A stretch of 64,000 nt of DNA, from IMG/VR virus record IMGVR_UViG_3300044695_001846, positions 1 through 64,000 of that record. One strand, given 5' to 3'. Below are positions 4,380-22,188 of this stretch, piece after piece. The translations under genes were made by a program, and so were the position numbers. The notes under the pieces are model-generated. The model had not been told where the DNA came from. It ran no database searches and was given only the letters and a program-made list of their open reading frames with translations. This DNA comes from a virus. Lineage: Duplodnaviria; Caudoviricetes. How positions within the stretch are numbered: position 1 is the stretch's first letter; every line of letters starts with the position of its first letter.

Positions 4380-4825
4380 TGGCAGAATTAAAAGTAGAAA
4401 TTGATCAAATTGTAAATAATATAACAATTGATGAAGAAAATGTAGTTATTGAATTAGGAACTTCTGGTCCACAAGGTGGAAGAGGGACTGGAATTCTTAA
4501 TGGCATAACGGCTCCAAATAATACTATTGGTATTGTTGGAGATTTTTTCTTAAATACAACAAACATGAATTTGTATGGTCCAAAAACAGATTCAGGTTGG
4601 GGAACTCCAACAGATTTAGTAGGAAGTCAAGAACTTGGTTATGTTCACATTCAATCAGTACCCTCTGCGGTATGGAACGTAACACACGGATTAGGGTTTA
4701 CCCCTAATATTACAGTAGTTGATACAGCAGGAACAGTTGTTGAGGGGTCATATAACTATCCAAATTCAAGTACTGTAGTTTTGTCCTTTATCGGAGCATT
4801 TTCGGGAAGGGCGTATTTATCGTAA
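4379..4825 (+). CDS. Virion/fibre-associated protein with short collagen-like GPQGGRG motif
   Basis: GPQGGRG, G..GDFFLN...LYGPK and C-terminal WNVTHGLG..P.ITVVD domain. Confidence 0.6.
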   Translation: MAELKVEIDQIVNNITIDEENVVIELGTSGPQGGRGTGILNGITAPNNTIGIVGDFFLNTTNMNLYGPKTDSGWGTPTDLVGSQELGYVHIQSVPSAVWNVTHGLGFTPNITVVDTAGTVVEGSYNYPNSSTVVLSFIGAFSGRAYLS

Positions 4826-4843
4826 TGAAGGAGGTGAAAATAT

Positions 4844-6289
4844 ATGTCTAGAAAATTTTTAACAAGTATTGATTTAAATCGTAATGAATTGCAAAACGGT
4901 GTTATCCATAATTTGGCTACAGATCCAGGTTCTGGAGTTGCTGGTCAAGTTTACTTTAACACTGTTGACAACACGTTAAAAGTATATACTGGATCATCTT
5001 GGGAAGCCGTTGGGTCTACTGAATTTATTGGTGATGCAGTAAATGATTTACTTGATAGTGGAGCTGGAATTTCATTAAACTATAATGATGCTGGAAATTC
5101 TCTTACAATTGCAAACACTGGCGTAACTAGCATTGCTGGTACAGCTAACGAAGTATCTGTAAGCGGATCTGCTGGTGCAGTAACAGTAAGTCTTCCAAAC
5201 TCTATTACAGTAGATGTGACTGGTGCTTTAACTGGTAATGCAAGTACTGCTAGCACTTTGCAGACACCTAGATCTATTGGTCTTGGTGGATCTTTAAGTG
5301 GTAGTGTTAGTTTTGATGGAAGTCAGAACGTAACAATTACAGCAGATATCGTAGCAGATTCAGTTGCTCTTGGTGCAGATACAACTGGTGATTATGTAGC
5401 AGGTGCAAGTGCATCTGGTGCAGGTATCAGTGTAACTGGTTCAGGTGGTGAAGGTTCAACTCTAACGATTTCTAACACTGGTGTTACATCTCTTTCAGGA
5501 ACAGCTAATGAAGTAACTGTTTCAGGATCTGCTGGAGCAATTACAATTGGTCTTCCAGATGATGTAACAATTGGAGGAAATCTTGGTGTAACTGGAAATC
5601 TAACTGTAAGTGGAAGCGTAACAACTTTAAATACAGAAACTTTGCTAGTTGAGGATAATCAAATTACCCTTAATAGCAATGTAACTGGAGTTCCTGCAGC
5701 AAATGCAGGTCTTGAAGTTGAGCGTGGTGATTCAACCAATGCTTCTTTAATTTGGAATGAATCATCTGATAAATGGTCAGCTGGACTTCTTGGTAGCGAA
5801 ACTGCTATCTCTCTTGAAGGTCACGTCCATGCAACATCTGATATAACTGGATTACAGGAGTATGTTGAAGATACAGTTGGCACAATGCTAACAGACTCTT
5901 CAACAGTTGATTTCACATATTCAGATAATTCTGGAAGTGCTGGAACATTCACTGCTGGTATCATTACAGCTTCAACAAGCTATTTGACAACTGGTAGTGG
6001 TCTTGCTGTTGATATTTCTTCTGTAGAGTCAAAGTTAATAACTGATGGATTCCCAAAGAAATATGCAGCTAATAACACATCGCTAACATCAACTAGTGGA
6101 GTATGTACCTGGACTGTAACACACAACCTTGCAACTAAGGATGTAACAGTTCAAGTATATGAAGTTGCTGCTGATTATAATCAGGTAGAAGTAGATGTAC
6201 AACATACATCAACATCTGCTATAACTATTAAAATTAATAGTGCAACAACAATTGCTGCTGACACATATCGTGTTGTAGTAATTGGATAA
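4844..6289 (+). CDS. Tail fibre protein
   Basis: Gly/Ser/Thr-rich repeats (NTGVTSxxGTANEV twice), VEDNQITLN..AGLEVERG motif, C-terminal THNL domain; GGAGG RBS. Confidence 0.75.
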   Translation: MSRKFLTSIDLNRNELQNGVIHNLATDPGSGVAGQVYFNTVDNTLKVYTGSSWEAVGSTEFIGDAVNDLLDSGAGISLNYNDAGNSLTIANTGVTSIAGTANEVSVSGSAGAVTVSLPNSITVDVTGALTGNASTASTLQTPRSIGLGGSLSGSVSFDGSQNVTITADIVADSVALGADTTGDYVAGASASGAGISVTGSGGEGSTLTISNTGVTSLSGTANEVTVSGSAGAITIGLPDDVTIGGNLGVTGNLTVSGSVTTLNTETLLVEDNQITLNSNVTGVPAANAGLEVERGDSTNASLIWNESSDKWSAGLLGSETAISLEGHVHATSDITGLQEYVEDTVGTMLTDSSTVDFTYSDNSGSAGTFTAGIITASTSYLTTGSGLAVDISSVESKLITDGFPKKYAANNTSLTSTSGVCTWTVTHNLATKDVTVQVYEVAADYNQVEVDVQHTSTSAITIKINSATTIAADTYRVVVIG

Positions 6290-6350: not shown

Positions 6351-9300
6351 ATGGCAAAGAAATTTTTAAGTACTTTAAAGATAGTTAATCTACCTTCAGA
6401 TCCTATAAGTGGATCCGAGGGAGAACTATACTTTAATACTTCAGCATCAGTAGCAAAGGTTTACCAAGCAGGAGCTTGGTCAGTCCTTGGTGCAGGTGCT
6501 GGCGGTGGAACTACCGTTAGCACAACAGAACCACCTTCTCCAGAAATTGGGGATTCCTGGTATAAAAATGATACTGGTGAATTTTATGTATATGATGGAA
6601 CTTATTGGGTAGAAGTAAATGGAGTTATTGAAGGAGAAAGTAATCTATATACTCTTTCAGATGTAACTATTACAAATCCTACAAATAATGAAGTGTTAGC
6701 ATATGATTCTTCAGGATCTATTTGGATTAATCAAACAGCAAGTGAAACTGGATTATTAACAGAAGAATCTGCTTCTTCTACATATCTTACACAACTATCT
6801 GCTTCTATGAATTATTTAACATCTGACGATGCTATTATGCTATATCAGCCAATAAGTGTAAGACTTTTTAACTTAACTGGCTTAGAAAATGTAGAAGGAT
6901 TTTTAAGAACTGATGGTGGTCTTGGATGGGGAGTAGATACTGCAACTTATTTAACAACTTGGAGTGCATCTTCAACTTATTTAACTCAAGCAGATGCTTC
7001 TAGTGTTTATTTAACACAAACAAATGCAGCAAATACTTATCTAACTCCTGCAACTAGTGCTTCAATATATCAACCATTAGATGCAGACTTGACTACAATT
7101 GCAGCACTATCAGGATCTTCAGGGTTTTTAAAGAAAAATATTTTTGATAATTGGGTAATAGATAGTAACACATATTTAACAACTTATGATGCTTCAACTC
7201 TTTATCAAACAACTGGAGATTATGCAACAATTAGTGGAGTTGAAACTTTATCAAATAAGACTATGAGTTCCGCTTTTATTGATGGAACTTTGACATTTAA
7301 TGACATAGATCATGATCACACTATTTCCTCAGCATCAAATAATTTTACAATTAATGCACATCAAGATCTTTATTTAACTACAACTACTGGAAGCATTGTT
7401 TTACAACCAGATGAATTTGTAAAAATATATGATGAACATGTTGCTACACAAGAATGGGTAGATTTTCAAGACTACTTAACACAGGTTAGTGCCTCTACAA
7501 TATATCAGCCAATTGGATCATATTCTACAACTTCTCATAATCATACTTTAGATAGTCTTTCAAATGTTGTAATTACTGGAACTCCATCAGATGGACAGGC
7601 AATTGTTTGGGATACGTCTACTTCAAAATGGGTAAATGAAACAATAGCTTCAGGATCTTCTTATCCAGATCAAACTGGTAACAATGGAAAATTTTTACAA
7701 ACAAATGGTGCAAGTGTATCTTGGCAAAATGTTGATCTAAGTTCTAAGCAAAACTACTCAGTAGTCCTTGACACATTAGGATCATCATACGTTAGTCTAG
7801 GAGAAGGATCTGGGTTCTTAAAATATACTAGAGGTTTCCTGGGAAGTTCACCAACATGGTCATTAGATACAGCTACATATTTAACATCATATACAGAAAC
7901 ATCCACATTAGAAGATGTAACTGATCGTGGAGCAACATCATCAAATGCAATTACTATTAGCAATACAACAGAGGCTACTAATGCTACTACAGGTGCTTTA
8001 ATTGTGTCTGGTGGTGTTGGCGTAGCAAAAGATCTTTGGATTGATGGAAATTTACATGTTGCTGGAACTACAACAACTGAAAACACTAAAACAGTAGCAA
8101 CTCATGATAATTTAATTTATTTAAATGCTGCTTTAGATTCAACTATTACAAATGCTGTATATTCAAGTGGATCTATTATTTATACTGCAGATAATTTGTA
8201 TGTTGCTGAAATGGATATTAGAATTACTGGAGTAAGTCCATCAGCATTTAATATATCTTCTGGAGATTTATTAACAGTTGCTTCTGCAACCCCTACACAG
8301 TTTGTTGTTATAAAATCAGATCCAGGAGCATCTTATATTTCTGGTGGAACTGCACACGCAAAAGAAGAGGCTGATCCAGATTTAGGATTTTCAGGTGGAT
8401 ATTATGATGCAGGTTATGCTCACGCAGGTTTATTTAGAGACGCATCTGATGGAGTATTTAAATTCTTCCAAGGATATACCCCAGAACCAGATGAAGCGGT
8501 AAATATTGACACTACTCACGCATCATTTGCATTTGCAGACATACAAATAAGAAATATAAAGCCACAGGGATCTGGTCAAAATGATAACTTTGGAATTGGT
8601 TATAATGCAACATTTAATGCTACTGGATTTGCAAATTTTGGTATAGGGCAAAATGCTTTTAGTGGTGGAAGTGGAACAAACAACTTTGCAATTGGCGATA
8701 ACTCCTTGGAAAATAATACTGGAGGAAGGAACTTTGCATTTGGTGGTTCTGCATTAACTAATAATACTGGAGACTATAATTATGCAATCGGTAAAGATTC
8801 TTTACAAAATAATAGTGGATGGGATAACTACAGTATTGGACCTGCTCTTTATGGAAATACTGGAGACTGGAATTATGCAGTAGGAACTAATTCTTTGCAG
8901 AGTAATACTGGAGACTATAATTTTGCATTTGGGTATCAGGCTGGTCTTAATAATACTGGTTCATACAATGTTTATATTGGTAAATCAGAAGGTCTTTCAA
9001 CAAGTAATAATATAGTTATTGCAGATAATGAAGGCAATATAAGAGCACAATATTTATCTGCAAGTTCTGGATGGACTTTAGGAACAGTTGTTTCTGGAAC
9101 CTGGAATGGATCAGCAATTGGATATCAATACGGTGGAACAGGTCTTACTTCTTTAGGTAGTGCTGGCTATGTTCTTGCAGTAAATGCAACAGTTGACGGT
9201 CTTGAATGGGTAGAAATCACTGGTGGTGGATCATCATTTACCAATTCTTCAGAACTTGCAGCATTATTATCAGATGAAACTGGAAGTGGATCTGTAGTAT

Positions 9301-9707
9301 TTTCTAATTCACCAACTCTTACTACTCCAAATATTGGAGCAGCAACTGGAACCTCTTTGACCACAACTGGAAATGTTATTTCACATGTTGATATTTCAAC
9401 ACCTACATTTGTTACAAATTCATATACCATCACATCTACTGATGATGGAAAACTTTTAATGCTAAATAATTCTACAACAGCTGGAAATCTTTTGATTCCA
9501 ACAGATGCGACTTTTAATTTCCCAATTGGAACACAGATAAACATTGTTCAGGCAGGAACTGGTCTAATTACTGTAGCAGCAGTAACTCCAGCAACAACAA
9601 CAGTAAATGCTACTCCTGGTAAAAAACTTAGAGCACAATGGTCTTCAGCAGCAATTGTTAAAACTGCAGCAAATACTTGGTTATTGATGGGAGACCTAAC
9701 GGTATAA
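6351..9707 (+). CDS. Long tail fibre/adhesin protein (1118 aa)
   Basis: Mosaic of fibre motifs: TYLT/SAS repeats, GALIVSGGVGVAKDL, N.AIG..SL..NTG (YadA-like head repeats), C-terminal FPIGTQI...TWLLMGDL domain. Confidence 0.8.
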   Translation: MAKKFLSTLKIVNLPSDPISGSEGELYFNTSASVAKVYQAGAWSVLGAGAGGGTTVSTTEPPSPEIGDSWYKNDTGEFYVYDGTYWVEVNGVIEGESNLYTLSDVTITNPTNNEVLAYDSSGSIWINQTASETGLLTEESASSTYLTQLSASMNYLTSDDAIMLYQPISVRLFNLTGLENVEGFLRTDGGLGWGVDTATYLTTWSASSTYLTQADASSVYLTQTNAANTYLTPATSASIYQPLDADLTTIAALSGSSGFLKKNIFDNWVIDSNTYLTTYDASTLYQTTGDYATISGVETLSNKTMSSAFIDGTLTFNDIDHDHTISSASNNFTINAHQDLYLTTTTGSIVLQPDEFVKIYDEHVATQEWVDFQDYLTQVSASTIYQPIGSYSTTSHNHTLDSLSNVVITGTPSDGQAIVWDTSTSKWVNETIASGSSYPDQTGNNGKFLQTNGASVSWQNVDLSSKQNYSVVLDTLGSSYVSLGEGSGFLKYTRGFLGSSPTWSLDTATYLTSYTETSTLEDVTDRGATSSNAITISNTTEATNATTGALIVSGGVGVAKDLWIDGNLHVAGTTTTENTKTVATHDNLIYLNAALDSTITNAVYSSGSIIYTADNLYVAEMDIRITGVSPSAFNISSGDLLTVASATPTQFVVIKSDPGASYISGGTAHAKEEADPDLGFSGGYYDAGYAHAGLFRDASDGVFKFFQGYTPEPDEAVNIDTTHASFAFADIQIRNIKPQGSGQNDNFGIGYNATFNATGFANFGIGQNAFSGGSGTNNFAIGDNSLENNTGGRNFAFGGSALTNNTGDYNYAIGKDSLQNNSGWDNYSIGPALYGNTGDWNYAVGTNSLQSNTGDYNFAFGYQAGLNNTGSYNVYIGKSEGLSTSNNIVIADNEGNIRAQYLSASSGWTLGTVVSGTWNGSAIGYQYGGTGLTSLGSAGYVLAVNATVDGLEWVEITGGGSSFTNSSELAALLSDETGSGSVVFSNSPTLTTPNIGAATGTSLTTTGNVISHVDISTPTFVTNSYTITSTDDGKLLMLNNSTTAGNLLIPTDATFNFPIGTQINIVQAGTGLITVAAVTPATTTVNATPGKKLRAQWSSAAIVKTAANTWLLMGDLTV

Positions 9708-9708
9708 T
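9701..9708 (+). promoter_or_regulatory. -10 promoter GGTATAAT driving the Cys-ladder operon (probably leaderless)
   Basis: TATAAT 9703-9708, 6 nt before ATG 9715, no SD. Confidence 0.6.
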
Positions 9709-9714
9709 AATATT

Positions 9715-10758
9715 ATGAGATTAAGGAATATTGGATCAGTTGCAGGATCAACGCTAAAAATATTTAGAGATACCTTTAATAGAGCTAACCAAACTGGTAT
9801 TGGAACATCCTCTGATGGATCAACATGGAATATAATTAGAGGTTCTTTTAATATTACTTCCAATAAAGCAGATGGTCAAACTCCAGCAAATTATCCATTA
9901 GCTTCAGTTGATATGCCAAAAGAAGAAGTCACCATTAGCTTAAGTGGTGTTACGCAAGGTTCAACTGCAGCACTATGGGTTACAGATAGTGGAAACTGGT
10001 TTGGAGTTGGAATTGATCAAGAAACTATAAGCTGTAATTGTCAAACATGTACAACTCCTGGAAACTGTGCTTCAACTAACTATCAGTGCAATTCAGGAGA
10101 TTATCCATGTACTGTAGCCAACTATGCTTGTAATGTTGCTAACTATGCATGTAATGGTGGAAGCTATTTCTGCGATGTTGTTGGAAATAGATTCTGTAGA
10201 TCCTATACTACTCCTTGTAACATGATGAGTACGCCATTTAGTCCATGCACTGCTTGGTCTAGAGTATGTAATGGTGGATATAATACTGGAAACTGCAATG
10301 GTTCAAACTCTATGTTTACATGCAATGTTTATGCTTGGACATGTAATGCATACGCTTGGACATGTAATACTTGGGCTTTTAACTGTAATTCAGCTTCATA
10401 TCCATGTGCTTCTTTTAATGCAGCTACTTTTTATACATGCAATTGTCAAACATGCTATCCTCAATATATTAGATTTATACAATCTGTTGCAAACACAATT
10501 ACACAGTTAACCAGCTGGACAGTTGCAAGTGTTATTCAATCTTTTAAGGTAATTATATCTTCTATAAATCCAGCAAAAACTTCTGGAACTGCTACAATTA
10601 AACCTTATTCAGATACTAATCTTTCTACACAAATTGGATCAGATTTAACTTATACCCCAACTGGAGTTGCAATTAATGCAAAATATGGTATAATGATTAA
10701 GCCTTCAAGTTATTCTCAAGGAACAACCATTGATGAAATAACTATAGAGACCAACTAG
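9715..10758 (+). CDS. Putative virion/receptor-binding protein with a 22-Cys insert in a beta-sandwich-like domain
   Basis: N-terminal DTFNRAN...GTSSDGSTW motif; central Cys repeat, mostly 7-residue spacing, flanked by CNCQTC; first gene after promoter GGTATAAT. Confidence 0.55.
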   Translation: MRLRNIGSVAGSTLKIFRDTFNRANQTGIGTSSDGSTWNIIRGSFNITSNKADGQTPANYPLASVDMPKEEVTISLSGVTQGSTAALWVTDSGNWFGVGIDQETISCNCQTCTTPGNCASTNYQCNSGDYPCTVANYACNVANYACNGGSYFCDVVGNRFCRSYTTPCNMMSTPFSPCTAWSRVCNGGYNTGNCNGSNSMFTCNVYAWTCNAYAWTCNTWAFNCNSASYPCASFNAATFYTCNCQTCYPQYIRFIQSVANTITQLTSWTVASVIQSFKVIISSINPAKTSGTATIKPYSDTNLSTQIGSDLTYTPTGVAINAKYGIMIKPSSYSQGTTIDEITIETN

Positions 10759-10768
10759 GAGAACTTTT

Positions 10769-11029
10769 ATGACAGAACAAAATGATCTACCAGATGTTCC
10801 AGATTTAGTTGCACCAAAGCATGATGTGACTGCATTTCCTTATGATATTGCCGTAATTATTGATGATACTGTTTTTCAAATAATGAATGTTGATGGTCAA
10901 CAGGCTGCACAGTTTTTATCCCAGCCAAGATTTGTAAGAATTCTTCCTGGAGATCTTGCTAAAATTGGTTGGAAATATATTGACGGAAAATTTTCTTATC
11001 CAGGTGAATCTAATATAGAAGGATTCTAG
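10769..11029 (+). CDS. Small hypothetical protein (paralogue of 11749-12072)
   Basis: AVIIDDTVFQIM...AAQFLSQP...IGWKY; GGAG RBS. Confidence 0.7.
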   Translation: MTEQNDLPDVPDLVAPKHDVTAFPYDIAVIIDDTVFQIMNVDGQQAAQFLSQPRFVRILPGDLAKIGWKYIDGKFSYPGESNIEGF

Positions 11030-11041
11030 TAGGGGCGTATT

Positions 11042-11749
11042 TTGAAACTAATACATTTTATATGCTCAGAATCAATGGAAATTGGTAAGCCAGATTTAAT
11101 TAAAAAATTTATTCCTGAATGGTATAAAAAAGCGGAAACACATTTTTCTTCAGAAGAAGATTTGGCTATTGAAGAAGGAACTCAAAAAACAAGTGCTGGG
11201 CTAAAAACTTGTGTTCCATTTTTAGATGCAATGATATCTGGGTATGCATTAGTTGTGCCATTTGATATATATGTTGGAAAAACTAAAGATGGAGATCTTG
11301 ACATGAAGTGGAATGCTCCACAAGGTTGGGAAAATTTTGTTGAAGAAAGACCAAAAGAGTCTGGATCCACAATGCCAAGACCAGCAGGACATGCACCCAA
11401 TCATATGGTTTGGTCAGGTAGATGGGGTATTAAGGTTCCAAGAGGATACAGCGTTTTGGTGACTCATCCTTTAAATAGACAAGACTTGCCTTTTACAACA
11501 TCTTCTGCAATAATGGATAGCGATAAGTTTTTTGGAAATGGAAACATTCCATTCTTTATAAAAGAAGATTTTGTAGGAGTTATAGAAAAAGGAACTCCTT
11601 TTGCTCAAATTATTCCAATTAAAAGAAAGAGATGGAAAATGATTCATAACTCTGCTTTAAAAGATGCTATTCAAAAGCATGGACACGATGTTAGAAAAAA
11701 AGAAGGAACTTATAAGAAAAAATATTGGACTAGGAAGGAATATTTTTAA
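11042..11749 (+). CDS. dUTPase-fold-like (DUF6065-like) protein with CVP motif, paralogue 1
   Basis: KTCVPFLDAMISGY...IKVPRGYSVLVTHP...IMDSD...IEKGTPFAQIIP; TTG start. Confidence 0.55.
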   Translation: MKLIHFICSESMEIGKPDLIKKFIPEWYKKAETHFSSEEDLAIEEGTQKTSAGLKTCVPFLDAMISGYALVVPFDIYVGKTKDGDLDMKWNAPQGWENFVEERPKESGSTMPRPAGHAPNHMVWSGRWGIKVPRGYSVLVTHPLNRQDLPFTTSSAIMDSDKFFGNGNIPFFIKEDFVGVIEKGTPFAQIIPIKRKRWKMIHNSALKDAIQKHGHDVRKKEGTYKKKYWTRKEYF

Positions 11750-12072
11750 TGTCAGGTAGTCACGATCATAGTGAAAATATAAGAGTTTTAACTACTAGGG
11801 AAATTGTTAGAGACTTTTTTACTAGAAGAAGAAAATATCGTAGTAAAATTTCTTTAGATTCAAATGCTATTCCACCAGCCCCACCAGAGTCTAAGATAAA
11901 TTATTTAGCAATTATTTTAGATGGAGAAGTTCAGGAAATTATGAGAGCACAAAATAGATTAGCTGCCTTACTCTTAAGTCAGCCACTAATTGTAGAATTT
12001 GATCCTGAACAGGTTAAGCCAAATATTGGATGGTCTTATAAAGAAGAAGAATTTTCTCAATATGGGGAATAA
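11749..12072 (+). CDS. Small hypothetical protein (paralogue of 10769-11029)
   Basis: AIILDGEVQEIM...AALLLSQP...IGWSY; translationally coupled. Confidence 0.7.
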   Translation: MSGSHDHSENIRVLTTREIVRDFFTRRRKYRSKISLDSNAIPPAPPESKINYLAIILDGEVQEIMRAQNRLAALLLSQPLIVEFDPEQVKPNIGWSYKEEEFSQYGE

Positions 12073-12724
12073 GATTATTACATTTACATCTTGTGTTCCA
12101 GAAATAGATGTACCCCATCCTTTTCCAGCTAGTAGGCTTGTTCCAGAATGGTATAGAAAATTGCCAGGTGCTGCAGATAAGATAGAAACAGTTAAGAAAT
12201 GTGTTCCAGTCTTAGATGCCCTAACCTCTGGATATATGATTACTTTGCCTGTAGATGTTCACTTTAATGGAGAAGAAAGATCTTTCTGGTATGACTCTCC
12301 TTTTGAAATTAATTCTAATCACTACTTATCGCAGACACAGGGGGTTGATATTGGAGATGAATTCCATGAACAACCACATAAATGGATTAATCAATGGCTA
12401 ATTGAAACTCCAAAAGGATATAGCTGTTTATTTATTCATCCGTTAAATAGAGCAGATCTTCCCTTTAAATCTTTTACTGGAATTGTTGATACAGACAAGC
12501 ATCCAATTATAATTAATTTTCCATTTGTTATGAAAAAAGATTTTTCTGGAGTTATCCCAGCAGGGACTCCAATAATTCAAATTATCCCATTTAAAAGAGA
12601 TGATTGGTCTATGAATGTAGTTGATGATAAACAATTTAAAGAACATCCAGAAGCTCATGAAGTAGAGAATCCACCATTTAACTGGTATAAAAGAAGATGG
12701 TGGACCAGAAAGACTTATACATAA
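12062..12724 (+). CDS. dUTPase-fold-like (DUF6065-like) protein with CVP motif, paralogue 2
   Basis: KKCVPVLDALTSGY...ETPKGYSCLFIHP...GIVDTD...IPAGTPIIQIIP; ATG 12062 preferred over the track start. Confidence 0.55.
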   Translation: MGNKIITFTSCVPEIDVPHPFPASRLVPEWYRKLPGAADKIETVKKCVPVLDALTSGYMITLPVDVHFNGEERSFWYDSPFEINSNHYLSQTQGVDIGDEFHEQPHKWINQWLIETPKGYSCLFIHPLNRADLPFKSFTGIVDTDKHPIIINFPFVMKKDFSGVIPAGTPIIQIIPFKRDDWSMNVVDDKQFKEHPEAHEVENPPFNWYKRRWWTRKTYT

Positions 12725-13689
12725 TGGAAAGCATTTATATTGCCATCCCTTCAATGGCTGATACTGAAACAAGTGCCACTATAAAAAATGCCATAGAATC
12801 TGCAGAATATCCAGATAGAGTTTTTATTGGAGTTTCTTTTAAAGACTTGAATAAAAAAGAGTATAAGAGAGTGCTTTCTCTAAAAGAAAAGTATCCAAAT
12901 ATTTCTGTAGAGTTTATAAAACTTAAAAAAAGAAAAGTTTCAGAGTATGGCACTGGAGATGGTAGATTTAGAGCACAGCAAATGTACTCTAATCAAGATT
13001 ATATGCTTCAGGTAGATTCTCACACCTATTTTGATAAAAACTGGGATTCTTATTTAATAAAACTATTTAAAGAATTTAAAAATCAAAGCAACATAGAAAA
13101 GTTTGTTTTAACTTCATACATTCCATACTATTCATACCAGCCAGAAAGATCTAGACACCCTGGAGAGTTTTCTTTACCAAGATACCCTCATTTAATTGTT
13201 GATGATTTTTTCTTAAGGTATTTGCCAAAATGGGATGATAATCCAATTCCAGAAAATTCTAAATTAGACAAGTTTGTTCCATGTGTAAAATTTAACGGAG
13301 CCTTTGCTTTTGGAGATAAAAACTTTGTCAACAATACTGGTGTATTCAAAGATGCAATATTTTATGATGAAGAGTTAATTCAAAGCATTAATTTGATTGG
13401 AAATGATTTTGCTTTGGTATTTTTGAATATAAAAGATTTTCCAATAGCACACCTATACTCTGAAGATATAAATGAATTTGGTGGAGAAAGAACATATTTT
13501 GGAGACCTTCTGAGTGCAAGAAAACAAGAAGAGGTTGCAGACAAAGCAATATCTAACTACTTAAACTTTATAGCAAATCCAGAAAACAAAGAGCTAGTTG
13601 CAAAATATGAAAAATATGCTAAAATGGATTGTAGACGTGGACCGCTTTTAAGCAACTATATCCCAAAAGATTTTATTGTTAAGGAATGA
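12724..13689 (+). CDS. Glycosyltransferase, GT60-like (Skp1-hydroxyproline GlcNAc-transferase family)
   Basis: SIYIAIPSMADTET..TI..A...A.YPDRVFIGV and YMLQVDSHTYFDKNWD (DSH motif); start coupled at TAATG 12724. Confidence 0.7.
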   Translation: MESIYIAIPSMADTETSATIKNAIESAEYPDRVFIGVSFKDLNKKEYKRVLSLKEKYPNISVEFIKLKKRKVSEYGTGDGRFRAQQMYSNQDYMLQVDSHTYFDKNWDSYLIKLFKEFKNQSNIEKFVLTSYIPYYSYQPERSRHPGEFSLPRYPHLIVDDFFLRYLPKWDDNPIPENSKLDKFVPCVKFNGAFAFGDKNFVNNTGVFKDAIFYDEELIQSINLIGNDFALVFLNIKDFPIAHLYSEDINEFGGERTYFGDLLSARKQEEVADKAISNYLNFIANPENKELVAKYEKYAKMDCRRGPLLSNYIPKDFIVKE

Positions 13690-13690
13690 T

Positions 13691-14002
13691 ATGAACGATT
13701 TGCCAGAAGTGCCAGATTTAGTATATCCAAAACCAACTGAGGATGTTTCAAAAAAAACAAAGAGACCAGTAAGACCTTGGGACATATTTAATAAAAACAT
13801 TGAAAAAGTAGTTGATAATGTTCAGCAAGAAAGAATGTCTATATGCCTACAGTGTCCTAGATTAATAAAAGCAACCAGGCAATGCAAAGAGTGTGGATGT
13901 TTTATGGACGCAAAAACCAAACTTTTTGATGCAGAATGTCCATTAGGAAAATGGAATAACGTAGTGGTCAGTGTAGACCAGTTTGATTATAAAAAGGATT
14001 AA
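13691..14002 (+). CDS. Small Cys-rich metal-binding protein (DUF6171-like)
   Basis: RMSICLQC...QCKECGCFM..KT....CPLGKW; AAGGA RBS before ATG 13691. Confidence 0.65.
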   Translation: MNDLPEVPDLVYPKPTEDVSKKTKRPVRPWDIFNKNIEKVVDNVQQERMSICLQCPRLIKATRQCKECGCFMDAKTKLFDAECPLGKWNNVVVSVDQFDYKKD

Positions 14003-14005
14003 GAC

Positions 14006-14752
14006 ATGGTTGATGTAAAGCTAATAACTGGAGATGCAACAAACCTGTCCTTTATTGAAAGTAACTCAATAGATTTAATTATTGCAGCACCCCCATTCAT
14101 TAATAGAGATTCTACTGGATATGGTGGAGATCCAAAGAAACAAATAAACTTTAATTCTAAAAAAATGTTAAAGCTTCTTTTAAAAAGTACAAAAGAAATG
14201 GAAAGAGTTTTAAAGCCAACTGGAAGTATTTGGATTGAAATTTCTCCAGAAGATGCTTTAATGCATAGATATATCGTTGAGGTTTTGGATAAAACAAATT
14301 TAAAGAATCCTAACACAATTGTTCATAAAGTTTTAGATGATGAAAGTAAGTCTAATATAGATGAGGTAATTTATAAAGATTGGTTTTTATGGTTTCATCT
14401 TGTAAAAGATGTTAATAACTTTTATTCTAATCCGTTTAAAGTAAAAAAATTTAGAGATCCTGTCTGGTATTTAAACAATACAAATAGAGAAGATTTAGTT
14501 GATAAAACATTAAAGCTTACTTATCCTAAAATTATTAATTATACTGTTGTAAAAGATATTCCAGAAAGGTTTATAGAAATGTACACCAAGGAAAAGGCTG
14601 TAGTTCTAGACCCGTTTGGTGGAAGTGGAACTGTTGCTGCTGTAGCATATAGTATGAATAGAAATGGAATAAGCGTTGACGTTTCTGAAGAACAAACAGA
14701 CGTGGCTAGAAAAAGAATAGATTTAGTAAAGGCTATGGAAAAAGATGTTTAA
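14006..14752 (+). CDS. N4/N6 DNA methyltransferase-like protein (beta class) with atypical catalytic motif
   Basis: SIDLIIAAPPF at motif IV position; VLDPFGGSGT SAM-binding motif. Confidence 0.7.
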   Translation: MVDVKLITGDATNLSFIESNSIDLIIAAPPFINRDSTGYGGDPKKQINFNSKKMLKLLLKSTKEMERVLKPTGSIWIEISPEDALMHRYIVEVLDKTNLKNPNTIVHKVLDDESKSNIDEVIYKDWFLWFHLVKDVNNFYSNPFKVKKFRDPVWYLNNTNREDLVDKTLKLTYPKIINYTVVKDIPERFIEMYTKEKAVVLDPFGGSGTVAAVAYSMNRNGISVDVSEEQTDVARKRIDLVKAMEKDV

Positions 14753-15470
14753 TAAAAAATATATAGAGATAAGTAGAATTTCAGACTCCTCTGTTTTTGA
14801 AATAATCCCAAATAAGGTTAAAAGAAAATGGATGGATAAAACAGATGGAAATGCTTATCAGTGCGTTCCAATGAATGTTGCAAATTCTTACGGATGGACA
14901 GTTCTTTCTCCAGGAAGGTTTTCCGCAACTTGGGATGGTGGAGACGCTAAGCATTCTTTAAGAGTTGAACTTGAAAGAGATAGTCCTTTTAGATTTGCAG
15001 CTTCAGAATTTGGACACGGAATACTTTCAATAGTCCCAGACTTTATAGTAAGAACATCAAAGAATGTTTCATTGTATGTTAGAGGTATTCCAAATCAGAT
15101 AGCAATAGGTTTACAGCCTTTTGATGGAATAGTTGAAACAGACTGGCTTCCTTTTACCTTTACCTTTAACTATAAATTTGTTAAACCTGGTAAGTTAACA
15201 ATTGAAAAAGATCAGCCTCTATTTACCTTTTTTCCAATTGAAAGAGGGTACATAGAAAGTTTTGAAACAAGAGAATCTTTTCTATATAAAGATAAAGAGT
15301 TCTACGAAGACTATTTAAAGTATTCAGATCTTAGAGAATTGCAACAGTCTGGAAAGCCAGTAAAAGATTCTGGAGCATATTTAAAGGGTAGGCTTGAAGA
15401 CAAAGAGTTTGATATACTTAATCACACTAAAAAGGTAAGCCTTAAAGGGTTTAAGAAAGAAGAAGAATGA
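14745..15470 (+). CDS. DUF6065-like protein with CVP motif, paralogue 3
   Basis: RKWMD....AYQCVPMNVANSYGW...GIVETDWLPFTFTFNY...IEKDQPLFTFFP. Confidence 0.6.
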   Translation: MFNKKYIEISRISDSSVFEIIPNKVKRKWMDKTDGNAYQCVPMNVANSYGWTVLSPGRFSATWDGGDAKHSLRVELERDSPFRFAASEFGHGILSIVPDFIVRTSKNVSLYVRGIPNQIAIGLQPFDGIVETDWLPFTFTFNYKFVKPGKLTIEKDQPLFTFFPIERGYIESFETRESFLYKDKEFYEDYLKYSDLRELQQSGKPVKDSGAYLKGRLEDKEFDILNHTKKVSLKGFKKEEE

Positions 15471-16378
15471 TGCCAAGATATCTTATAACAGGTGGTCCAG
15501 GTTCGCTAGGAAAAGAAATTTGCAAGAGCCTTTTGAACCTTTGTGACACTAAAGAGATTATTATGTTTTCTAGAAATGAAACTAAGCAGTTTGAATCTTC
15601 TATGTCTATTAATGATGACAGAGTTAAGTATGTAGTTGGAGACATAAAAAACTATGACTCTCTATTTACCATAATGAAAGGTGTAGACTATGTTTTTCAT
15701 GCTGCAGCTTTAAAGCACATAGATTTGGCAGAAAAATCTCCAGATGAAACTATTAAAATAAATGTTTTAGGAACAAGTAATGTTGTAAATGCAGCAATTC
15801 AAAATGGAGTAAAGAAGGTACTACTCGTATCAACAGACAAGTCTTGTATTCCAACAAGTATCTATGGAGTCAGTAAACTTTTGTCTGAAAGGAATGTAAT
15901 ACTTTCTAATGGACTTTCTGATACAAAATTTTCTGTAGTAAGGTTCGGCAACTTAATTGGAAGCAATGGATCAATTTTTCAAAAATGGAAAATTATAAAA
16001 GATAGTGATCAAAGAATTACTGTAACTCATAAAGATATGACAAGATTTTTTATTAGAAGTTCTGAAGCTGCTATGTGGTCTGTTAAATTTATTAAGGAAA
16101 TGGTTGGCGGAGAACTTTTTGTTCCTAAAATGAAGAGTGCAAACGTTTATGATATTGCTAAGTCTTTTGTATCTGAGTCTCAAATAGATATAACTGGAAC
16201 TAGGTCTGGAGAAAAGCTTGATGAGGATATCCTGTCTAGCCTGGAACTTGGCACAGTAGAAGATCTTGGAGAATTTTTTATTTTGCACAATGATAATAAG
16301 GTTAACAATTTTTCATATAATAGTAAAAATAATAAATACTGGTATTCTGGAAAAGAAATAGAAAGTTTTTTTGATTAG
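15467..16378 (+). CDS. UDP-GlcNAc 4,6-dehydratase-like SDR (PseB/FlaA1/CapD family)
   Basis: LITGGPGSLG, HAAALKH, STDK, YGVSK, VRFGNLIGSNGS, MTRFF, GEKL.E motifs. Confidence 0.85.
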   Translation: MMPRYLITGGPGSLGKEICKSLLNLCDTKEIIMFSRNETKQFESSMSINDDRVKYVVGDIKNYDSLFTIMKGVDYVFHAAALKHIDLAEKSPDETIKINVLGTSNVVNAAIQNGVKKVLLVSTDKSCIPTSIYGVSKLLSERNVILSNGLSDTKFSVVRFGNLIGSNGSIFQKWKIIKDSDQRITVTHKDMTRFFIRSSEAAMWSVKFIKEMVGGELFVPKMKSANVYDIAKSFVSESQIDITGTRSGEKLDEDILSSLELGTVEDLGEFFILHNDNKVNNFSYNSKNNKYWYSGKEIESFFD

Positions 16379-16386
16379 GAGGAAGT

Positions 16387-16524
16387 ATGATTAGCAAAAG
16401 ATTTTCAGTTGTAAGTGCATGTAACTTGTGCTTAGAAACAATCTCAAAGTTTATTAGCAAGCCAAAAGAGGATAGTAAAAAGAATCCAAACTGCAAGTGC
16501 AAACAATGTAAATGCTCTAAATAA
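16387..16524 (+). CDS. 45-aa Cys/Lys-rich peptide, metallothionein-like (not in ORF track)
   Basis: Strong AGGAGG RBS at 16377-16382; MISKRFSVVSACNLCLETISKFISKPKEDSKKNPNCKCKQCKCSK. Confidence 0.55.
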   Translation: MISKRFSVVSACNLCLETISKFISKPKEDSKKNPNCKCKQCKCSK

Positions 16525-16535
16525 AAGGAATTTAA

Positions 16536-16946
16536 ATGAACGAAGTAGTTTTAGTAGATATTGATGGTACTGTCGCTAATATGGTAAATAGAAGTCCTTA
16601 TGAGTACGATAAAGTTGGGTCAGACTTGCCAAATAAAGATGTTATAAATGTTGTTGAATGTTTGTGGAAGTCTAGCAAAACTATAATTTATATAACTGGT
16701 CGTGAAGATTCTTGTTATGAGGAAACTTATAAATGGCTAGTTGAAAATTGCCCACCCTTTTCTAATTTGTATATGCGTAAAACTGGAGACTATAGAAAAG
16801 ATGTAGAAATAAAAAAAGAGATTTATGACAATAATATTAAAAACGTGTTTGACGTATTGTGCGTATTAGATGATCGTAAATCAGTGGTTGACATGTGGAG
16901 AAGTTTGGGGCTAACCTGCTTGCAAGTTAATGACGGAGATTTTTAA
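16536..16946 (+). CDS. HAD phosphatase (polynucleotide kinase/PseT 3'-phosphatase-like domain)
   Basis: VDIDGT, ITGR, MRKTGDYRKD..IK, LDDR...VDMWRSLGL.C.QV..GDF. Confidence 0.85.
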   Translation: MNEVVLVDIDGTVANMVNRSPYEYDKVGSDLPNKDVINVVECLWKSSKTIIYITGREDSCYEETYKWLVENCPPFSNLYMRKTGDYRKDVEIKKEIYDNNIKNVFDVLCVLDDRKSVVDMWRSLGLTCLQVNDGDF

Positions 16947-17656
16947 TGTATAGTGGAAAAAAAATACATCATTTTTATCACATAGGATCTTCGGGACAGT
17001 GGCTTCAACCACTTTCTGAACATATCCATGCTTTAAAAAGATATGGGCTTTTAGATATACTAGATAGCTTAAATTTTGGAATTATTGGATTGCATGAAAA
17101 TAGAAAAGCTGTAAAAGAATACTTAAGCAGTCAGCTTGATAATTTTAACATTGTTGCAGAAGCTGACGAAGGTTGGGAGCAAGTTACCTTAAAGCCTCTT
17201 TATGAATTTGCTTTAAAAAATGACGGTTATATTTTTTATGCTCATACAAAAGCCTCAAACAATCATAATCTTTATGGGGTAAAGCACAGAAGATCAATGA
17301 CCTATTTTAACATCGTAAACTGGAAAGATTGTGTAGAAAAATTAGATGAAGGTTATACCCTAGCTGGAGTTCATTATTGTCAAATGTATTTATTAAAAGA
17401 TGCCTATGGAAATGAATTAGACCTTCCAGGAGAAACTAGATATGAATACACAAAAAAATATGATGGGTTTTACTTAGGCAATTTTTGGTGGGCTACATCT
17501 AATGGAATAAAAACTTTAAATCCTTGTAAAAATGAGTATAGGCAAGATGCTGAGTTTTGGATAGCTCAAATAAAAATAGAAGATAAGGCAGCCTATGACT
17601 TTCATCCTATAAATAATCTTGTAGAACATGAAGATCAGTTTGTAACTAAATGGTAA
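16946..17656 (+). CDS. Putative glycosyltransferase-like protein
   Basis: HFYHI...EQVTL...FYAHTK...GNFWWA pattern seen in phage/giant-virus sugar-modification clusters; located in a glycosylation-gene cluster. Confidence 0.45.
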   Translation: MYSGKKIHHFYHIGSSGQWLQPLSEHIHALKRYGLLDILDSLNFGIIGLHENRKAVKEYLSSQLDNFNIVAEADEGWEQVTLKPLYEFALKNDGYIFYAHTKASNNHNLYGVKHRRSMTYFNIVNWKDCVEKLDEGYTLAGVHYCQMYLLKDAYGNELDLPGETRYEYTKKYDGFYLGNFWWATSNGIKTLNPCKNEYRQDAEFWIAQIKIEDKAAYDFHPINNLVEHEDQFVTKW

Positions 17657-17689: not shown

Positions 17690-17698
17690 TGGTATAAT
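17690..17698 (+). promoter_or_regulatory. Extended -10 promoter TGGTATAAT
   Basis: Intergenic, upstream of AAAGGTG RBS and ATG 17717. Confidence 0.7.
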
Positions 17699-17716: not shown

Positions 17717-18079
17717 ATGGCATTTCCAGGTACATATAATTTTAACTATTACAATGGAGACTCTTTTGAGTTCTTTGTTTATCCTAAAACCTCTAATGGT
17801 CAAGTTTTTGATAATTTAGGAAATTACTCTGCAAAATTTACAATTGCTACCGCCAGAGGTTCTGAAGAAGCTATAGTTTTATCATCAACTGCAAGTACAC
17901 AGATGTTGGCAACAATTGAAGATGATGACCACGTTGTTTGTGAAATATTACCTGCAGGTGGAGCAACTTTGCAAAGCTCATCTTATGTTTATGACGTTCA
18001 AATACAAAACGCAGGTACTGGAAAAGTTTATACTTTATTAACTGGAACAATATCTGTTACTCAGGATATAGCAGGATAA
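17717..18079 (+). CDS. Virion adaptor protein (BppU-like, paralogue of 4026-4379)
   Basis: PGTYNF..Y.GDSF...YVYDVQI...TLLTGTISVTQDI. Confidence 0.6.
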   Translation: MAFPGTYNFNYYNGDSFEFFVYPKTSNGQVFDNLGNYSAKFTIATARGSEEAIVLSSTASTQMLATIEDDDHVVCEILPAGGATLQSSSYVYDVQIQNAGTGKVYTLLTGTISVTQDIAG

Positions 18080-21099: not shown

Positions 21100-22188
21100 A
21101 TGGCTAAACCAACAGTATCATTTTTAACTTATGATTGGACCTTTGGGGTCAAGCCACTACAGCCTAACGGTTGTGGATGGTATAGATGCTATCTTCCAAT
21201 GAAAGAGTTATCCAATCATGGGTGGGAAGCAGGTTTGGGAATTCCAGGATTTAATCCAGAACACGGATTTGGAATTTTAATACCTGATGAGAAAGCTATC
21301 CATGGTTGGGATATTGTTGTTTTAAAACTTATTATGTTAGAAAGATGTGTTGATCAAGTAAGACAGGCAAGAGAATTTGGTCAAAAGATAGTTGTTGATA
21401 TTGATGATTTTATGGAGGGTTTAGAAGAAACTAACCTTGCATATAAAACTACATCTGCAGAATCTAATCCAAATAATAATCGTGATCATTATATAAAAAT
21501 TATTGCACAGGCAGATGCTTTAATTGTTTCTACACCATTCCTAAAAGACTATTATGAAAAAACATATCCAGGAAAGCCAGTGTTTGTGGTTAGAAATGGA
21601 ATTGATATCCATAGATGGAAAATGAGAAATGATCATAGAAGGTATCTCCCACATTTTGGTTGGGTTGGTGCTACACCATGGAGAAGTGGAGATCTTGAAA
21701 CACTTCAACCATTCTTTGGTGAATTTATTAAACAAAAACATTTAAAATTTCATCACGCTGGAAACGTAATTAATGCCCCAAGAGCATCTGACCAACTTGG
21801 TATTGATAAAAACCTTTCTACTATTGAACCAATGAGAACAATGCTTGAGGTTCCAGAACTATACAGAAAAATTGATATTGGAATTGTTCCTTTAAGAGAT
21901 GTTCCATTTAATCATGCAAAATCTTATTTAAAGGGTCTTGAGTACGCAGCGTCTGGTGTTCCTTTTATTGCACAAGCGTTGCCAGAATATCAATTACTTG
22001 CTGATGGTGGAGTTGGAAGAGTTGCAACTACTGCAGATGAATGGCTAGGGCACATGGAAGAATTGTTAGATCCAAATGTTAGAAAACTTGAAAGAGAAAA
22101 GAATTTTGAATTAGTTAGAGATAACTTCTCTATGGATCAGCGTGGACATGATTGGGCAGAAGTCTTAAATCAAATTTATGATATATAA
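21100..22188 (+). CDS. Glycosyltransferase, GT-B fold (GT4-like)
   Basis: GCGWYRC..P, VVDIDD, ADALIVST..L, DIGIVPL...FNHAKSYLKGLEYAASGVPFIA. Confidence 0.8.
   Translation: MAKPTVSFLTYDWTFGVKPLQPNGCGWYRCYLPMKELSNHGWEAGLGIPGFNPEHGFGILIPDEKAIHGWDIVVLKLIMLERCVDQVRQAREFGQKIVVDIDDFMEGLEETNLAYKTTSAESNPNNNRDHYIKIIAQADALIVSTPFLKDYYEKTYPGKPVFVVRNGIDIHRWKMRNDHRRYLPHFGWVGATPWRSGDLETLQPFFGEFIKQKHLKFHHAGNVINAPRASDQLGIDKNLSTIEPMRTMLEVPELYRKIDIGIVPLRDVPFNHAKSYLKGLEYAASGVPFIAQALPEYQLLADGGVGRVATTADEWLGHMEELLDPNVRKLEREKNFELVRDNFSMDQRGHDWAEVLNQIYDI

Follow-up and report, generated by a model that had tools for sequence, protein, structure and literature searches.

In T2- and S16-like phages, the long tail fibres carry gp38, a separate small protein that is encoded just after the fibre gene, docks at the fibre's distal end, and needs helper proteins. 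S16 gp38 has been described as a set of hypervariable binding segments carried on a conserved framework (PMC9942802). Here we analyze a locus with a similar arrangement at positions 9715 to 17656 of the first 64 kb (the window, meaning the whole stretch of DNA analyzed; ~35% G+C) of the 73.5-kb IMG/VR virus record IMGVR_UViG_3300044695_001846. This locus contains 13 + strand open reading frames (ORFs), and the first of them encodes a candidate adhesin with 22 cysteines, referred to below as the tip protein. We conclude, with a probability of roughly 55%, that the locus specifies the distal end of a tail fibre, with a gp38-like adhesin and dedicated maturation and tailoring factors, among which a small DUF6171-like protein would act as the docking element. 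The comparison with gp38 also shows differences. The framework of the tip is made of cysteines, in contrast to the glycine-rich motifs of gp38, the tip scaffold is a ConA-like lectin sandwich, and the helpers in the window (DUF6171, phrog_7084, and s86/s107 proteins) gave no match to a known chaperone family in Pfam or PHROG.

Disulfides in virions have precedents. Virion parts of cyanophage Pam3 that are assembled in the cytoplasm carry functional disulfides (PMC9942802), and Mycobacterium abscessus phage Jabs is reported to have about 1,700 disulfides. In the accounts consulted, these bonds connect or staple structural proteins of an ordinary kind, and no dedicated small cysteine partner gene is described. 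By contrast, the tip protein of the window has a dense cysteine ladder within one insert and a genetically linked partner. Clusters for ribosomally synthesized and post-translationally modified peptides (RiPPs) that contain a RiPP recognition element (RRE) offer a loose analogy in gene order, where the substrate gene comes first and is followed by a small recognition-type domain, free or fused to tailoring enzymes. Unlike in those clusters, the putative substrate in the window is a 347-aa folded structural protein, no exporter accompanies it, and DUF6171 is a Cys-rich mini-domain instead of a winged-helix RRE. Searches of Pfam, PHROG, and NCBIfam found no protease or RRE family among the 13 genes, and the locus does not qualify as a RiPP cluster. 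An earlier reading of this DNA, made from the sequence alone (the original prediction), had proposed an organisation like that of a RiPP cluster; short precursor, leader peptide, and protease are all missing. Since DUF6171 is linked through fusions to the Cys protein as well as to tailoring enzymes, the formula of a substrate followed by its tailoring factors fairly describes the core of the locus. In the literature searched (subscription journals were outside its scope), no paper names DUF6171 or DUF6065, and the module is undescribed in work on cysteine-rich tail fibres, virion glycosylation, GT60 enzymes with phage, and freshwater actinophages.

The features that carry the argument are the following.

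6351 to 9707, + strand: 1118-aa Ser/Thr-rich tail-fibre protein, with tail-fibre-like PHROG matches in neighbouring genes
about 9408 to 9707, + strand: conserved ~100-residue C-terminal domain of the fibre protein, paired with Cys-family tip genes
9715 to 10758, + strand: tip protein, candidate adhesin, 347 aa, with a ConA-like lectin/carbohydrate-binding module (CBM) beta-sandwich formed by residues ~15-106 and 248-347
10033 to 10455, + strand: Cys-ladder insert of the tip protein, residues 107-247, with all 22 Cys and CNCQTC at both ends
10769 to 11029, + strand: s86 small protein, with a C-terminal domain of the pattern ...IIDG.V..I......AA.FLS.P.FV......IGW.Y..G.F
11042 to 11749, + strand: phrog_7084 protein a, dUTPase-like fold (PHROG E 4e-39; AlphaFold2 model, mean predicted local distance difference test [pLDDT] 82.6)
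11749 to 12072, + strand: s107, paralogous to s86; carries an HDH motif and, at the N-terminus, a basic extension
12062 to 12724, + strand: phrog_7084 protein b, longest ORF from TTG 11999 (PHROG E 1.8e-45)
12724 to 13689, + strand: GT60-like glycosyltransferase, longest ORF from 12697 (PF11397 71.2 bits, E 1.4e-19, cut-off 21; phrog_24687)
13691 to 14002, + strand: DUF6171-like six-Cys protein, longest ORF from TTG 13676 (phrog_13558 E 1.8e-15)

The tip protein and the fibre terminus

AlphaFold2 predicts that the two conserved parts of the tip protein form one beta-sandwich (pLDDT >90). Because the rows returned by Foldseek for this model were weak (best E 0.018), the VIA structure search was needed to settle the fold. 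VIA aligned the scaffold with the receptor-binding domain of TM4 gp23 (Z 16.1, root-mean-square deviation [rmsd] 3.0, 175 residues aligned), a Douge baseplate chain (Z 16.0), and CBM66 (Z 15.7), and the top five rows (Z 16.1-15.0, 153-175 residues aligned) place the tip in the ConA-like lectin/CBM fold. The sandwich also aligns in VIA with legume-type lectins, the CBM2 of the phage J-1 Dit, and the G7C fibre. Judged from this model, the protein encoded at 9715 has a lectin/CBM fold of the type found in receptor-binding domains of mycobacteriophages, and this fold supports the role in receptor binding that had been proposed for it. The receptor-binding domains of TM4 gp23 and of the Douge baseplate/central fibre, which were also the top Foldseek rows and likewise come from actinophages, are the closest structural parallels. 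They differ from the tip in that sequence similarity is not detectable, with 8-11% identity in the structural alignments, and in that the 140-residue Cys insert has no counterpart in them.

Sequence searches place the tip protein in a family of its own. At least 312 members were found at E<=1e-3 in one word-indexed search, and the 120 members listed of these 312 include none with a name or Pfam domain. A profile search of the family against PDB sequences and a tblastn search of the tip protein against cultured phages were both without match, as was a nucleotide search with the whole region among cultured phages.

The fibre gene belongs functionally with the tip gene. Its stop codon lies 7 nt before 9715, so that the start of the unit at 9701 in the original prediction cuts the fibre off from its tip. 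Where an ORF ends <=150 nt ahead of a Cys-family gene (71 unique cases), its C-terminus is in 53 cases shared with the fibre protein (residues ~1020-1118), and this shared terminus also occurs upstream of tip genes in a myovirus-type group. The sharing of these last ~100 residues indicates that tip protein and fibre terminus travel as a pair. By analogy with gp38 in T2/S16-type phages, the tip would dock on the C-terminal domain of the fibre as a separate adhesin.

A cysteine framework with variable loops

The count of 22 cysteines given earlier for the product of the first gene is correct, and 11 of the 21 Cys-Cys spacings in the insert are exactly 7. Alignments of the tip family show conserved N- and C-terminal parts that flank a Cys-rich insert, which is variable in length and sequence and has CNCQTC-type borders. 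In the close relatives L002-L005, 22/22 Cys are kept, and the insert is 69-74% identical compared to 86-91% for the flanks. Retention of the cysteines in an insert that diverges faster than its flanks points to a fixed framework carrying fast-evolving loops. Across the family, Cys spacing has its mode at 7 (16.9% of 3019 spacings), followed by 8, and Asn follows Cys in 30%. The Cys count is even in 163 of 168 unique Cys-rich members, over a range of 8 to 40; these members are related, so that a binomial value for the even counts is not a true probability. Parity across many different counts favours intrachain disulfide pairing, which predicts it, unlike Cys4 metal sites. From these sequence patterns, the cysteine ladder is probably disulfide-bonded, and we propose that tip proteins constitute a new family of lectin-fold adhesins that combine a cysteine framework with hypervariable loops. 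The insert itself is poorly modelled by AlphaFold2 (pLDDT 30-60). It may present a disulfide-zipped, possibly solenoid-like ladder of Cys, Asn, and aromatic residues as a variable binding surface.

The cysteines could instead bind Zn, Fe, or Cu, perhaps between the chains of an oligomeric tip, with DUF6171, s107, and the 45-aa Cys-rich peptide s45 (described below) acting as metallochaperones. The bacterial cytoplasm is reducing, and the fibre tips of T4 bind Fe and Zn. The six invariant Cys of DUF6171 include two CxxC knuckles, HSHDH-type tracts occur in the linkers of fusions between the glycosyltransferase (GT) and DUF6171, and one DUF6171 is fused to a ferritin-like domain. The main support comes from HxH His-rich tracts, which occur in 17 of 75 unique s107-type proteins compared to 4.6% of background small ORFs; on the other side, the remaining 58 s107-type proteins and all 54 unique s86-type proteins (0/54) are without them. 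The parity of the Cys counts also disagrees with metal binding, because the counts of 10, 14, 18, 22, 26, and 30 are not multiples of four, unlike what intrachain Cys4 sites would give. Moreover, the 4-Cys modules on Pro/Thr linkers in unrelated DUF6171-linked fibres resemble extracellular disulfide domains. We therefore consider a metal-binding ladder to be clearly improbable.

Linkage of DUF6171 to cysteine-rich tips

The DUF6171 assignment made earlier needs a qualification. The score of the window protein against DUF6171 (PF19668) is 23.7 bits (23.5 in the genome scan), which is below the 27-bit gathering cut-off. Its relatives pass this cut-off (27.9 bits for Synechococcus phage S-M1 and 31.4 bits for P0128), and its Atlas neighbours are DUF6171 clusters (0.93), so that the window protein is a divergent member by transitivity. 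The C-terminal ~50 residues hold the invariant pattern R-x3-C-x2-C-x9-C-x2-C-x-C-x-M-x2-K-x7-C-P-x3-W, in which C52, C55, C65, C68, C70, C83, P84, and W88 are invariant across 26 sequences; this pattern comes from our alignment and not from the description in Pfam. A search of the DUF6171 profile against PDB sequences gave only chance-level matches, to L28 and the NSE1 RING-like domain (E 0.27-6). A complex prediction of tip, DUF6171, and two Zn scored 0.01, against a mark of 0.32, and the fold of the partner was itself uncertain, so that this result speaks neither for binding nor against it.

Gene neighbourhoods were compared in loci from three IMG/VR scans, which comprised 40 loci for the Cys family, the best 80 of 572+ for phrog_7084, and the best 80 of 584+ for DUF6171; ORFs in these loci were assigned by phmmer or jackhmmer with the window proteins. 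All 13 genes are repeated in L002-L005, whereas clades at ~50% identity are without the PseB-like gene, s45, the HAD phosphatase gene, and the last gene. More distant clades keep the tip, s86, phrog_7084a, s107, and DUF6171 genes and sometimes phrog_7084b, GT, or methyltransferase genes, in varying order. Minimal forms consist of tip then DUF6171, or of tip, DUF6171, and then s86.

In a test on clusters at 60% identity, using loci that were not ascertained by DUF6171 and had >=2.5 kb of room, a DUF6171 gene stood <=6 kb downstream in 31 of 32 Cys-rich clusters compared to 1 of 7 Cys-free clusters (Fisher 1.5e-5; the loci come from related phages, so that this Fisher value and the next overstate independence). 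By contrast, 26 of the 32 Cys-rich clusters and 6 of the 7 Cys-free ones contained phrog_7084 genes. These counts imply that DUF6171 tracks the cysteines and that the dUTPase-fold genes track the lectin scaffold. Thus, DUF6171-like genes and the dUTPase-fold genes with a CVP motif do co-occur with Cys-ladder genes, as had been suggested, but the dUTPase-fold genes are not specific to cysteines, and DUF6065 is found with them only in close relatives. In the reciprocal direction, a same-strand Cys-rich ORF lies <=4 kb upstream of 37 of 53 unique DUF6171 genes with >=2 kb of room, compared to 4 of 70 downstream (Fisher 2e-14). Of the 16 misses in this test, 15 were inspected. In 11 of them, a long, fibre-like ORF upstream contains 4-19 Cys in a local cluster, and L129 has a family member with 12 Cys that had escaped the filter. 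An earlier metric, based on the nearest upstream ORF of >=200 aa (>=8 Cys in 56/104), was dropped, because it was confounded by intervening module genes. Around 73 DUF6171 contexts, Cys-family genes were counted in 35 and phrog_7084/DUF6065 genes in 27, and an s86/s107-type gene lies <=1.2 kb from 45 of these 73 DUF6171 genes.

The association extends beyond the tip family. DUF6171 also follows Cys-rich fibre proteins that are unrelated to the window tip and contain 4-Cys modules (C-x11-C-x3-C-x11-C) with Pro/Thr or PVT linkers. Giant fibre-like proteins with such modules, each followed by DUF6171, were seen at L154:3298-5946, L185:276-1631, L194:3508-5667, L199:3511-5910, and L094:5514-7478. 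Several of these giant fibres on PVT/PAPT linkers end in a CxxCxxxxCxxxCxxCCxxxCxC knot. The C-terminal stretch of the L094 and L154 fibre proteins, which had no Pfam match, looks Hint-like by eye.

The DUF6171 family comprises 11,559 representative clusters, its Atlas neighbour clusters are 92-100% viral, and it is present in 86 cultured-phage records. In S-M1, the DUF6171 gene stands ~3 kb after a fibre gene and directly behind genes for a 9-Cys fibre-like protein and a CPQC protein. The latter (positions 4603-5046 of S-M1, L206) is a 147-aa protein with a CPQC motif and a possible redox partner; a thioredoxin-like reading of it (E 0.025-0.033) fell below the cut-offs and is kept as a lead only. 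Three tandem DUF6171 stretches were seen in P0256, P0261, P0287, and P0181 (241-268 aa).

DUF6171 fusions and the GT60-like glycosyltransferase

The GT60-like glycosyltransferase named in the original prediction is confirmed by its PF11397 score, and transfer of GlcNAc to a polypeptide is a candidate function for it. In five unique ORFs of the loci (L022, L024, L025, L055, and L062), a GT60-like enzyme carries DUF6171 at its C-terminus. Among the 120 listed of 141 DUF6171 proteins of >=187 aa, 24 contain PF11397, 3 contain PF13640 (2-oxoglutarate [2OG] oxygenase), 1 is fused to GNAT, and 1 to a ferritin-like domain. A Pfam scan of ten long forms placed DUF6171 at either terminus and gave a weak sulfotransferase-like partner. 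By protein sequence, P0121 and P0123 each join an entire Cys-family tip protein to an appended DUF6171, and P0122 and P0124 resemble them in length and score. A docking or recognition domain would be expected to show such promiscuous fusion, with the substrate as well as with tailoring enzymes. The enzymes in these fusions have a parallel in the Skp1 pathway of Dictyostelium and Toxoplasma, in which a prolyl 4-hydroxylase and then the GT60 enzyme Gnt1 act sequentially on a protein; PF13640 and PF11397 are the same pair of enzyme families. The window differs from that pathway in having no 2OG oxygenase, and both kingdom and substrate are different.

The fusions bear as well on whether DUF6171 is a structural part of the virion, namely a small Cys cap or linker that is disulfide-bonded to the Cys cluster of the tip. 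In favour of this, fusions of tip and DUF6171 would, barring cleavage, carry DUF6171 into the virion; DUF6171 has an invariant, even number of Cys; and fibres of Pam3 are held by intermolecular disulfides (PMC9942802). This role is hard to fit to the fusions with GT, oxygenase, acetyltransferase, and sulfotransferase-like domains at either terminus, or to the copy in Stenotrophomonas phage Moby, which lies among small non-structural genes, and we hold it to be very unlikely.

Two further glycosyltransferase observations concern the surroundings of the module. A second glycosyltransferase gene of GT4/GT1-like type (21100-22188, + strand, phrog_7162) is conserved in relatives at ~50% identity, and GT2-TPR and GT1-type genes recur downstream of the module at other loci.

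The dUTPase-fold and s86/s107 proteins

The three dUTPase-fold-like paralogues seen earlier are real, at two depths of relationship. Proteins a and b of phrog_7084 (11042 and 11999/12062) are ~33% identical to each other. The DUF6065 protein encoded at 14745-15470 is distantly related to this pair, a link whose sole basis is an hhalign match (E 5.7e-5 over 137 columns); PF19541 scores 20.8 bits on 11999-12724, below its cut-off of 26.6, and does not match 11042-11749. In VIA, the top 22 rows for the phrog_7084a model are all dUTPases or dCTP deaminases (Z 9.3-5.2; best row rmsd 3.5, 127 aligned), followed by Tlp20 (Z 4.7) and unrelated rows at Z <=3.2; the Foldseek E value was 2e-4. A profile search of phrog_7084 against PDB sequences was without match. 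The family has ~30 invariant residues, including K55, C57, D62, D159, D161, and Q189, and by eye its GIVDTD and TPxAQ stretches resemble what we take to be dUTPase motifs III and IV. Herpesvirus pp71 and ORF10 are comparable cases of a viral dUTPase fold re-used without recognisable catalytic motifs (VIA Z 6.3 and 5.7), although they are tegument proteins of eukaryotic viruses with no sequence relation or fibre context.

The dUTPase-fold genes might simply encode enzymes of nucleotide metabolism without a link to the fibre. All fold matches are to dUTPase or dCTP deaminase, no PF00692 match was found in the whole record, which thus is without a canonical dUTPase, and distant members have no Cys-family neighbour. 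phrog_7084 homologues (~30% identity) occur in 52 cultured-virus records, mostly of haloarchaeal tailed viruses, and in Halorubrum tailed virus 10 (HRTV-10, L203) the homologue at 6908-7744 (33% identity, E 5e-28) has putative adhesin and tail-fibre genes on one side and a ribonucleotide reductase (RNR) gene on the other. Against this role, 36 of the 37 unique contexts of relatives at >= ~41% identity show a Cys-family gene directly ahead, with the relatives interleaved with s86/s107; two to three paralogues per module would be unusual for a housekeeping dUTPase; and the proteins themselves lack a PF00692 match, with an hhalign probability of 0.2 to a phi11 ORF that we took to be the dUTPase of that phage and that is annotated otherwise. 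Plain nucleotide metabolism is thus the least probable of the roles considered here. A search for long forms of phrog_7084 gave 1 protein at E<=1e-8 among 5818 candidates and no informative fusions.

The two small paralogues, s86 and s107, were also correctly paired earlier, and share a C-terminal domain with 40% identity over 55 aa (E 2e-10). s86 has no Pfam or PHROG match, s107 and the tip protein likewise gave no family match, and no Pfam/PHROG chaperone match (Tfa/Caudo_TAP, gp38, or gp57A) was found for s86, s107, DUF6171, or phrog_7084, which is still compatible with an analogous role. s86 (10769-10810) and the DUF6171 protein (13691-13730) share an N-terminal DLPDVPDLVAPK, DLP(D/E)VPDLV(A/Y)PK, which has the form LPKVPDLVFP in L007-L014; this DLPDVPDLVAPK-type motif may be a common docking peptide.

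Accessory genes and the extent of the module

The remaining genes of the block are these.

14006 to 14752, + strand: N6_N4-family methyltransferase (PF01555), accessory; 81.9 bits, cut-off 26.7; motif IV is APPF
14745 to 15470, + strand: DUF6065 (PF19541) protein, accessory; 186.9 bits, cut-off 26.6
15467 to 16378, + strand: PseB/FnlA-like short-chain dehydrogenase/reductase (SDR) of the UDP-GlcNAc 4,6-dehydratase family, accessory; Polysacc_synt_2 257 bits
16387 to 16524, + strand: s45, 45-aa peptide with 6 Cys, accessory; matches no family
16536 to 16946, + strand: HAD_PNKP-type phosphatase, accessory; Pfam 169 bits
16946 to 17656, + strand: last gene, 236 aa, DUF8361-like; Atlas 0.98 to DUF8361 clusters

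The tight packing of the 13 genes is real, with gaps of 1-12 nt or overlaps of 1-14 nt when internal ATG starts at 12062, 12724, and 13691 are used, and a 60-nt gap separates the end of the block (17656) from the next gene at 17717. However, the thirteen genes are a conserved core plus lineage-specific cargo and not a single self-contained unit. The core consists of the tip protein, the six-Cys DUF6171-like protein, the s86/s107 paralogues, and the two dUTPase-fold phrog_7084 proteins. Within 6 kb of the 73 DUF6171 contexts, the methyltransferase was found in 3, the PseB-like SDR in 3, and the HAD phosphatase and the last gene in 0, which contradicts the self-contained cassette of the original prediction. 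The PseB-like SDR and s45 accompany the module only in L002-L005, and it is only in close relatives that DUF6065, HAD, and the last gene stand behind the Cys gene.

Individual assignments fared unevenly. The HAD phosphatase holds. The "atypical" methyltransferase using S-adenosylmethionine belongs to the N6_N4 DNA-methylase family, but its motif IV is indeed unusual. DNA amino-methyltransferases have (D/N/S)PP(Y/F) at this motif, from which the APPF of the window enzyme departs, and 21-22 module-linked methyltransferase relatives have HPPY, APPF, QAPF, or SPPY. The UDP-GlcNAc dehydratase (PseB/CapD) assignment stands at the level of the broader Polysacc_synt_2 family; the score against the PseB equivalog TIGR03589, 254.3 bits, is below the 407.75 cut-off. 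The glycosyltransferase-like reading of the last gene is not supported: it has no above-threshold Pfam, PHROG, or NCBIfam match and Atlas places it with DUF8361. Host-dependent methylation of a tail protein has been reported in a mycobacteriophage.

The turnover of these genes raises the question of whether the locus contains only ordinary fibre chaperones and unrelated morons, with enzymes that target host envelope sugars or phage DNA and no virion protein tailored. Phage chaperone genes are usually located downstream of fibre genes (Tfa, gp38, and gp57A). The accessory genes come and go, as the counts above and that for the GT60-like gene (11 of 73) demonstrate, the methyltransferase is from a DNA-methylase family, and other GT families (GT2-like and GT4-like) and SDR enzymes are scattered across the same islands. 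Other targets would hardly explain why DUF6171 is repeatedly fused to protein-tailoring-type enzymes and to the tip itself, and motif IV of the module-linked methyltransferases departs from the D/N/S-PP-Y/F form. On balance, we consider it unlikely that these are ordinary chaperones and morons.

Promoter-like motif and phage context

Three copies of a promoter-like motif stand in or next to the block.

9701 to 9708, + strand: GGTATAAT -10-like motif, overlapping the fibre stop codon and 6 nt before ATG 9715
10687 to 10694, + strand: second GGTATAAT, inside the tip gene at its 3' end; it has a TG extension, and TTGCAA stands 16 nt upstream
17691 to 17698, + strand: GGTATAAT ahead of the next gene block (17717)

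The window contains 7 copies of GGTATAAT, all on the + strand (193, 3995, 9701, 10687, 17691, 31166, and 52721), compared to 2.55 expected, and 2 of 100 shuffles reach 7. Five copies stand 6-23 nt ahead of an ORF start. GGTATAAT may be a promoter element of this phage, and its spacing at 9701 and 193 would give leaderless or near-leaderless transcripts. The single promoter originally placed ahead of the block, with the next at 17690, thus corresponds to real GGTATAAT copies, but an identical copy with a better upstream hexamer (10667-10694) lies between them. Scans of the region for generic sigma-70-like sites (51 vs 60.1 +/- 8.0 expected) and for terminators (4 vs 5.7 +/- 2.2 expected) found no enrichment; therefore, the operon boundaries rest on gene spacing and GGTATAAT alone.

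The phage is siphovirus-like, with a 2523-aa tape-measure protein and portal, protease, and capsid genes, and has replication-type genes for RNR, DnaB, primase, Pol III alpha, and RecA. Its capsid protein is ~40% identical to capsid proteins of Streptomyces phages, and a WhiB-family gene lies in the record outside the window (72444-72611, locus L205; 45.1 bits, above the cut-off). Together, these two features make the earlier guess of an actinophage reasonable, and with the ~35% G+C suggest a phage of low-GC freshwater Actinobacteriota. Two other ORFs deserve mention. Amid fibre-like genes, a 283-aa ORF (740-1591, + strand) matches Mtd_N, the N-terminal domain of the major tropism determinant, with 51.1 bits; it could encode another receptor-binding protein, diversified in a different way. 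A 97-aa ORF close to the replication genes (63512-63805, + strand) has 8 Cys in CxxC-type pairs; its product has the look of a zinc finger and by eye is unrelated to DUF6171.

Proposed maturation of the tip

We propose that DUF6171 is a zinc-ribbon-like docking or holdase element that would bind the nascent Cys-bearing tip in the reducing cytoplasm, keep or correctly pair its thiols, and bring tailoring enzymes to it. In the window, the GT60-like transferase of O-GlcNAc type that is encoded next to it would be the recruited enzyme. The lectin scaffold would be served by s86/s107 and the two dUTPase-fold proteins, either in assembly or in chemistry that depends on uridine nucleotides. The methyltransferase, DUF6065, PseB-like dehydratase, s45, HAD, and last genes are read as lineage-specific cargo that may supply or vary sugar decoration. 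The earlier observations on this DNA were thus largely right and are partly confirmed; their interpretation is partly supported: in spirit it is right for the core of four families, and it errs in taking all 13 genes for a single system.

Several points weigh against this proposal. The functional links all rest on gene neighbourhood and fusions, in loci from related phages that are the 80 most like fibre-linked queries among 584+ relatives and 11,559 clusters. The Cys-rich cluster L034/L037 is without DUF6171 within 6 kb, the Cys-free cluster L067/L076 has DUF6171, L144 and L175 have no Cys cluster upstream of DUF6171, and L196 is ambiguous. In the cultured phage Moby, DUF6171 lies near spanin and RNR genes and away from any fibre gene. 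Since only 11 of the 73 DUF6171 contexts have the GT60-like gene close by, the core function cannot be glycosylation. More distant phrog_7084 relatives stand behind a Cys-family gene in only 1 of 24 contexts, and the enzyme-like invariant polar residues of the dUTPase-fold proteins fit an enzyme better than a chaperone. Finally, the solenoid is conjecture, because the insert is not confidently modelled.

In a wider version of the proposal, DUF6171 would provide recognition and handle thiols within a widespread phage system that matures cysteine-framework receptor-binding proteins, and the dUTPase-fold proteins would be tailoring enzymes dependent on uridine nucleotides. DUF6171 would then guide the correct pairing of disulfides, or alternatively keep the thiols as metal thiolates up to lysis, and it would recruit a changeable tailoring set of O-GlcNAc-type GT, prolyl-hydroxylase-like oxygenase, sulfotransferase, and acetyltransferase. 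Such a system would transfer the logic of RiPPs to virion adhesins, at the scale of proteins. We advance this version tentatively, as possible but doubtful.

Host range of phages is decided by receptor-binding proteins, and how disulfide-rich or decorated tips are made in a reducing cell is an open question that has been sharpened by recent structures of heavily disulfide-bonded virions. The proposal made here ties DUF6171, phrog_7084/DUF6065-like, and s86/s107 proteins, which are large families without described function, to one testable job. DUF6171 genes beside fibre genes in Synechococcus phages, such as S-M1, provide cultured entry points. If DUF6171 does target tailoring enzymes to adhesins, then it would be a handle with which to engineer or predict host range and the surface chemistry of virions.

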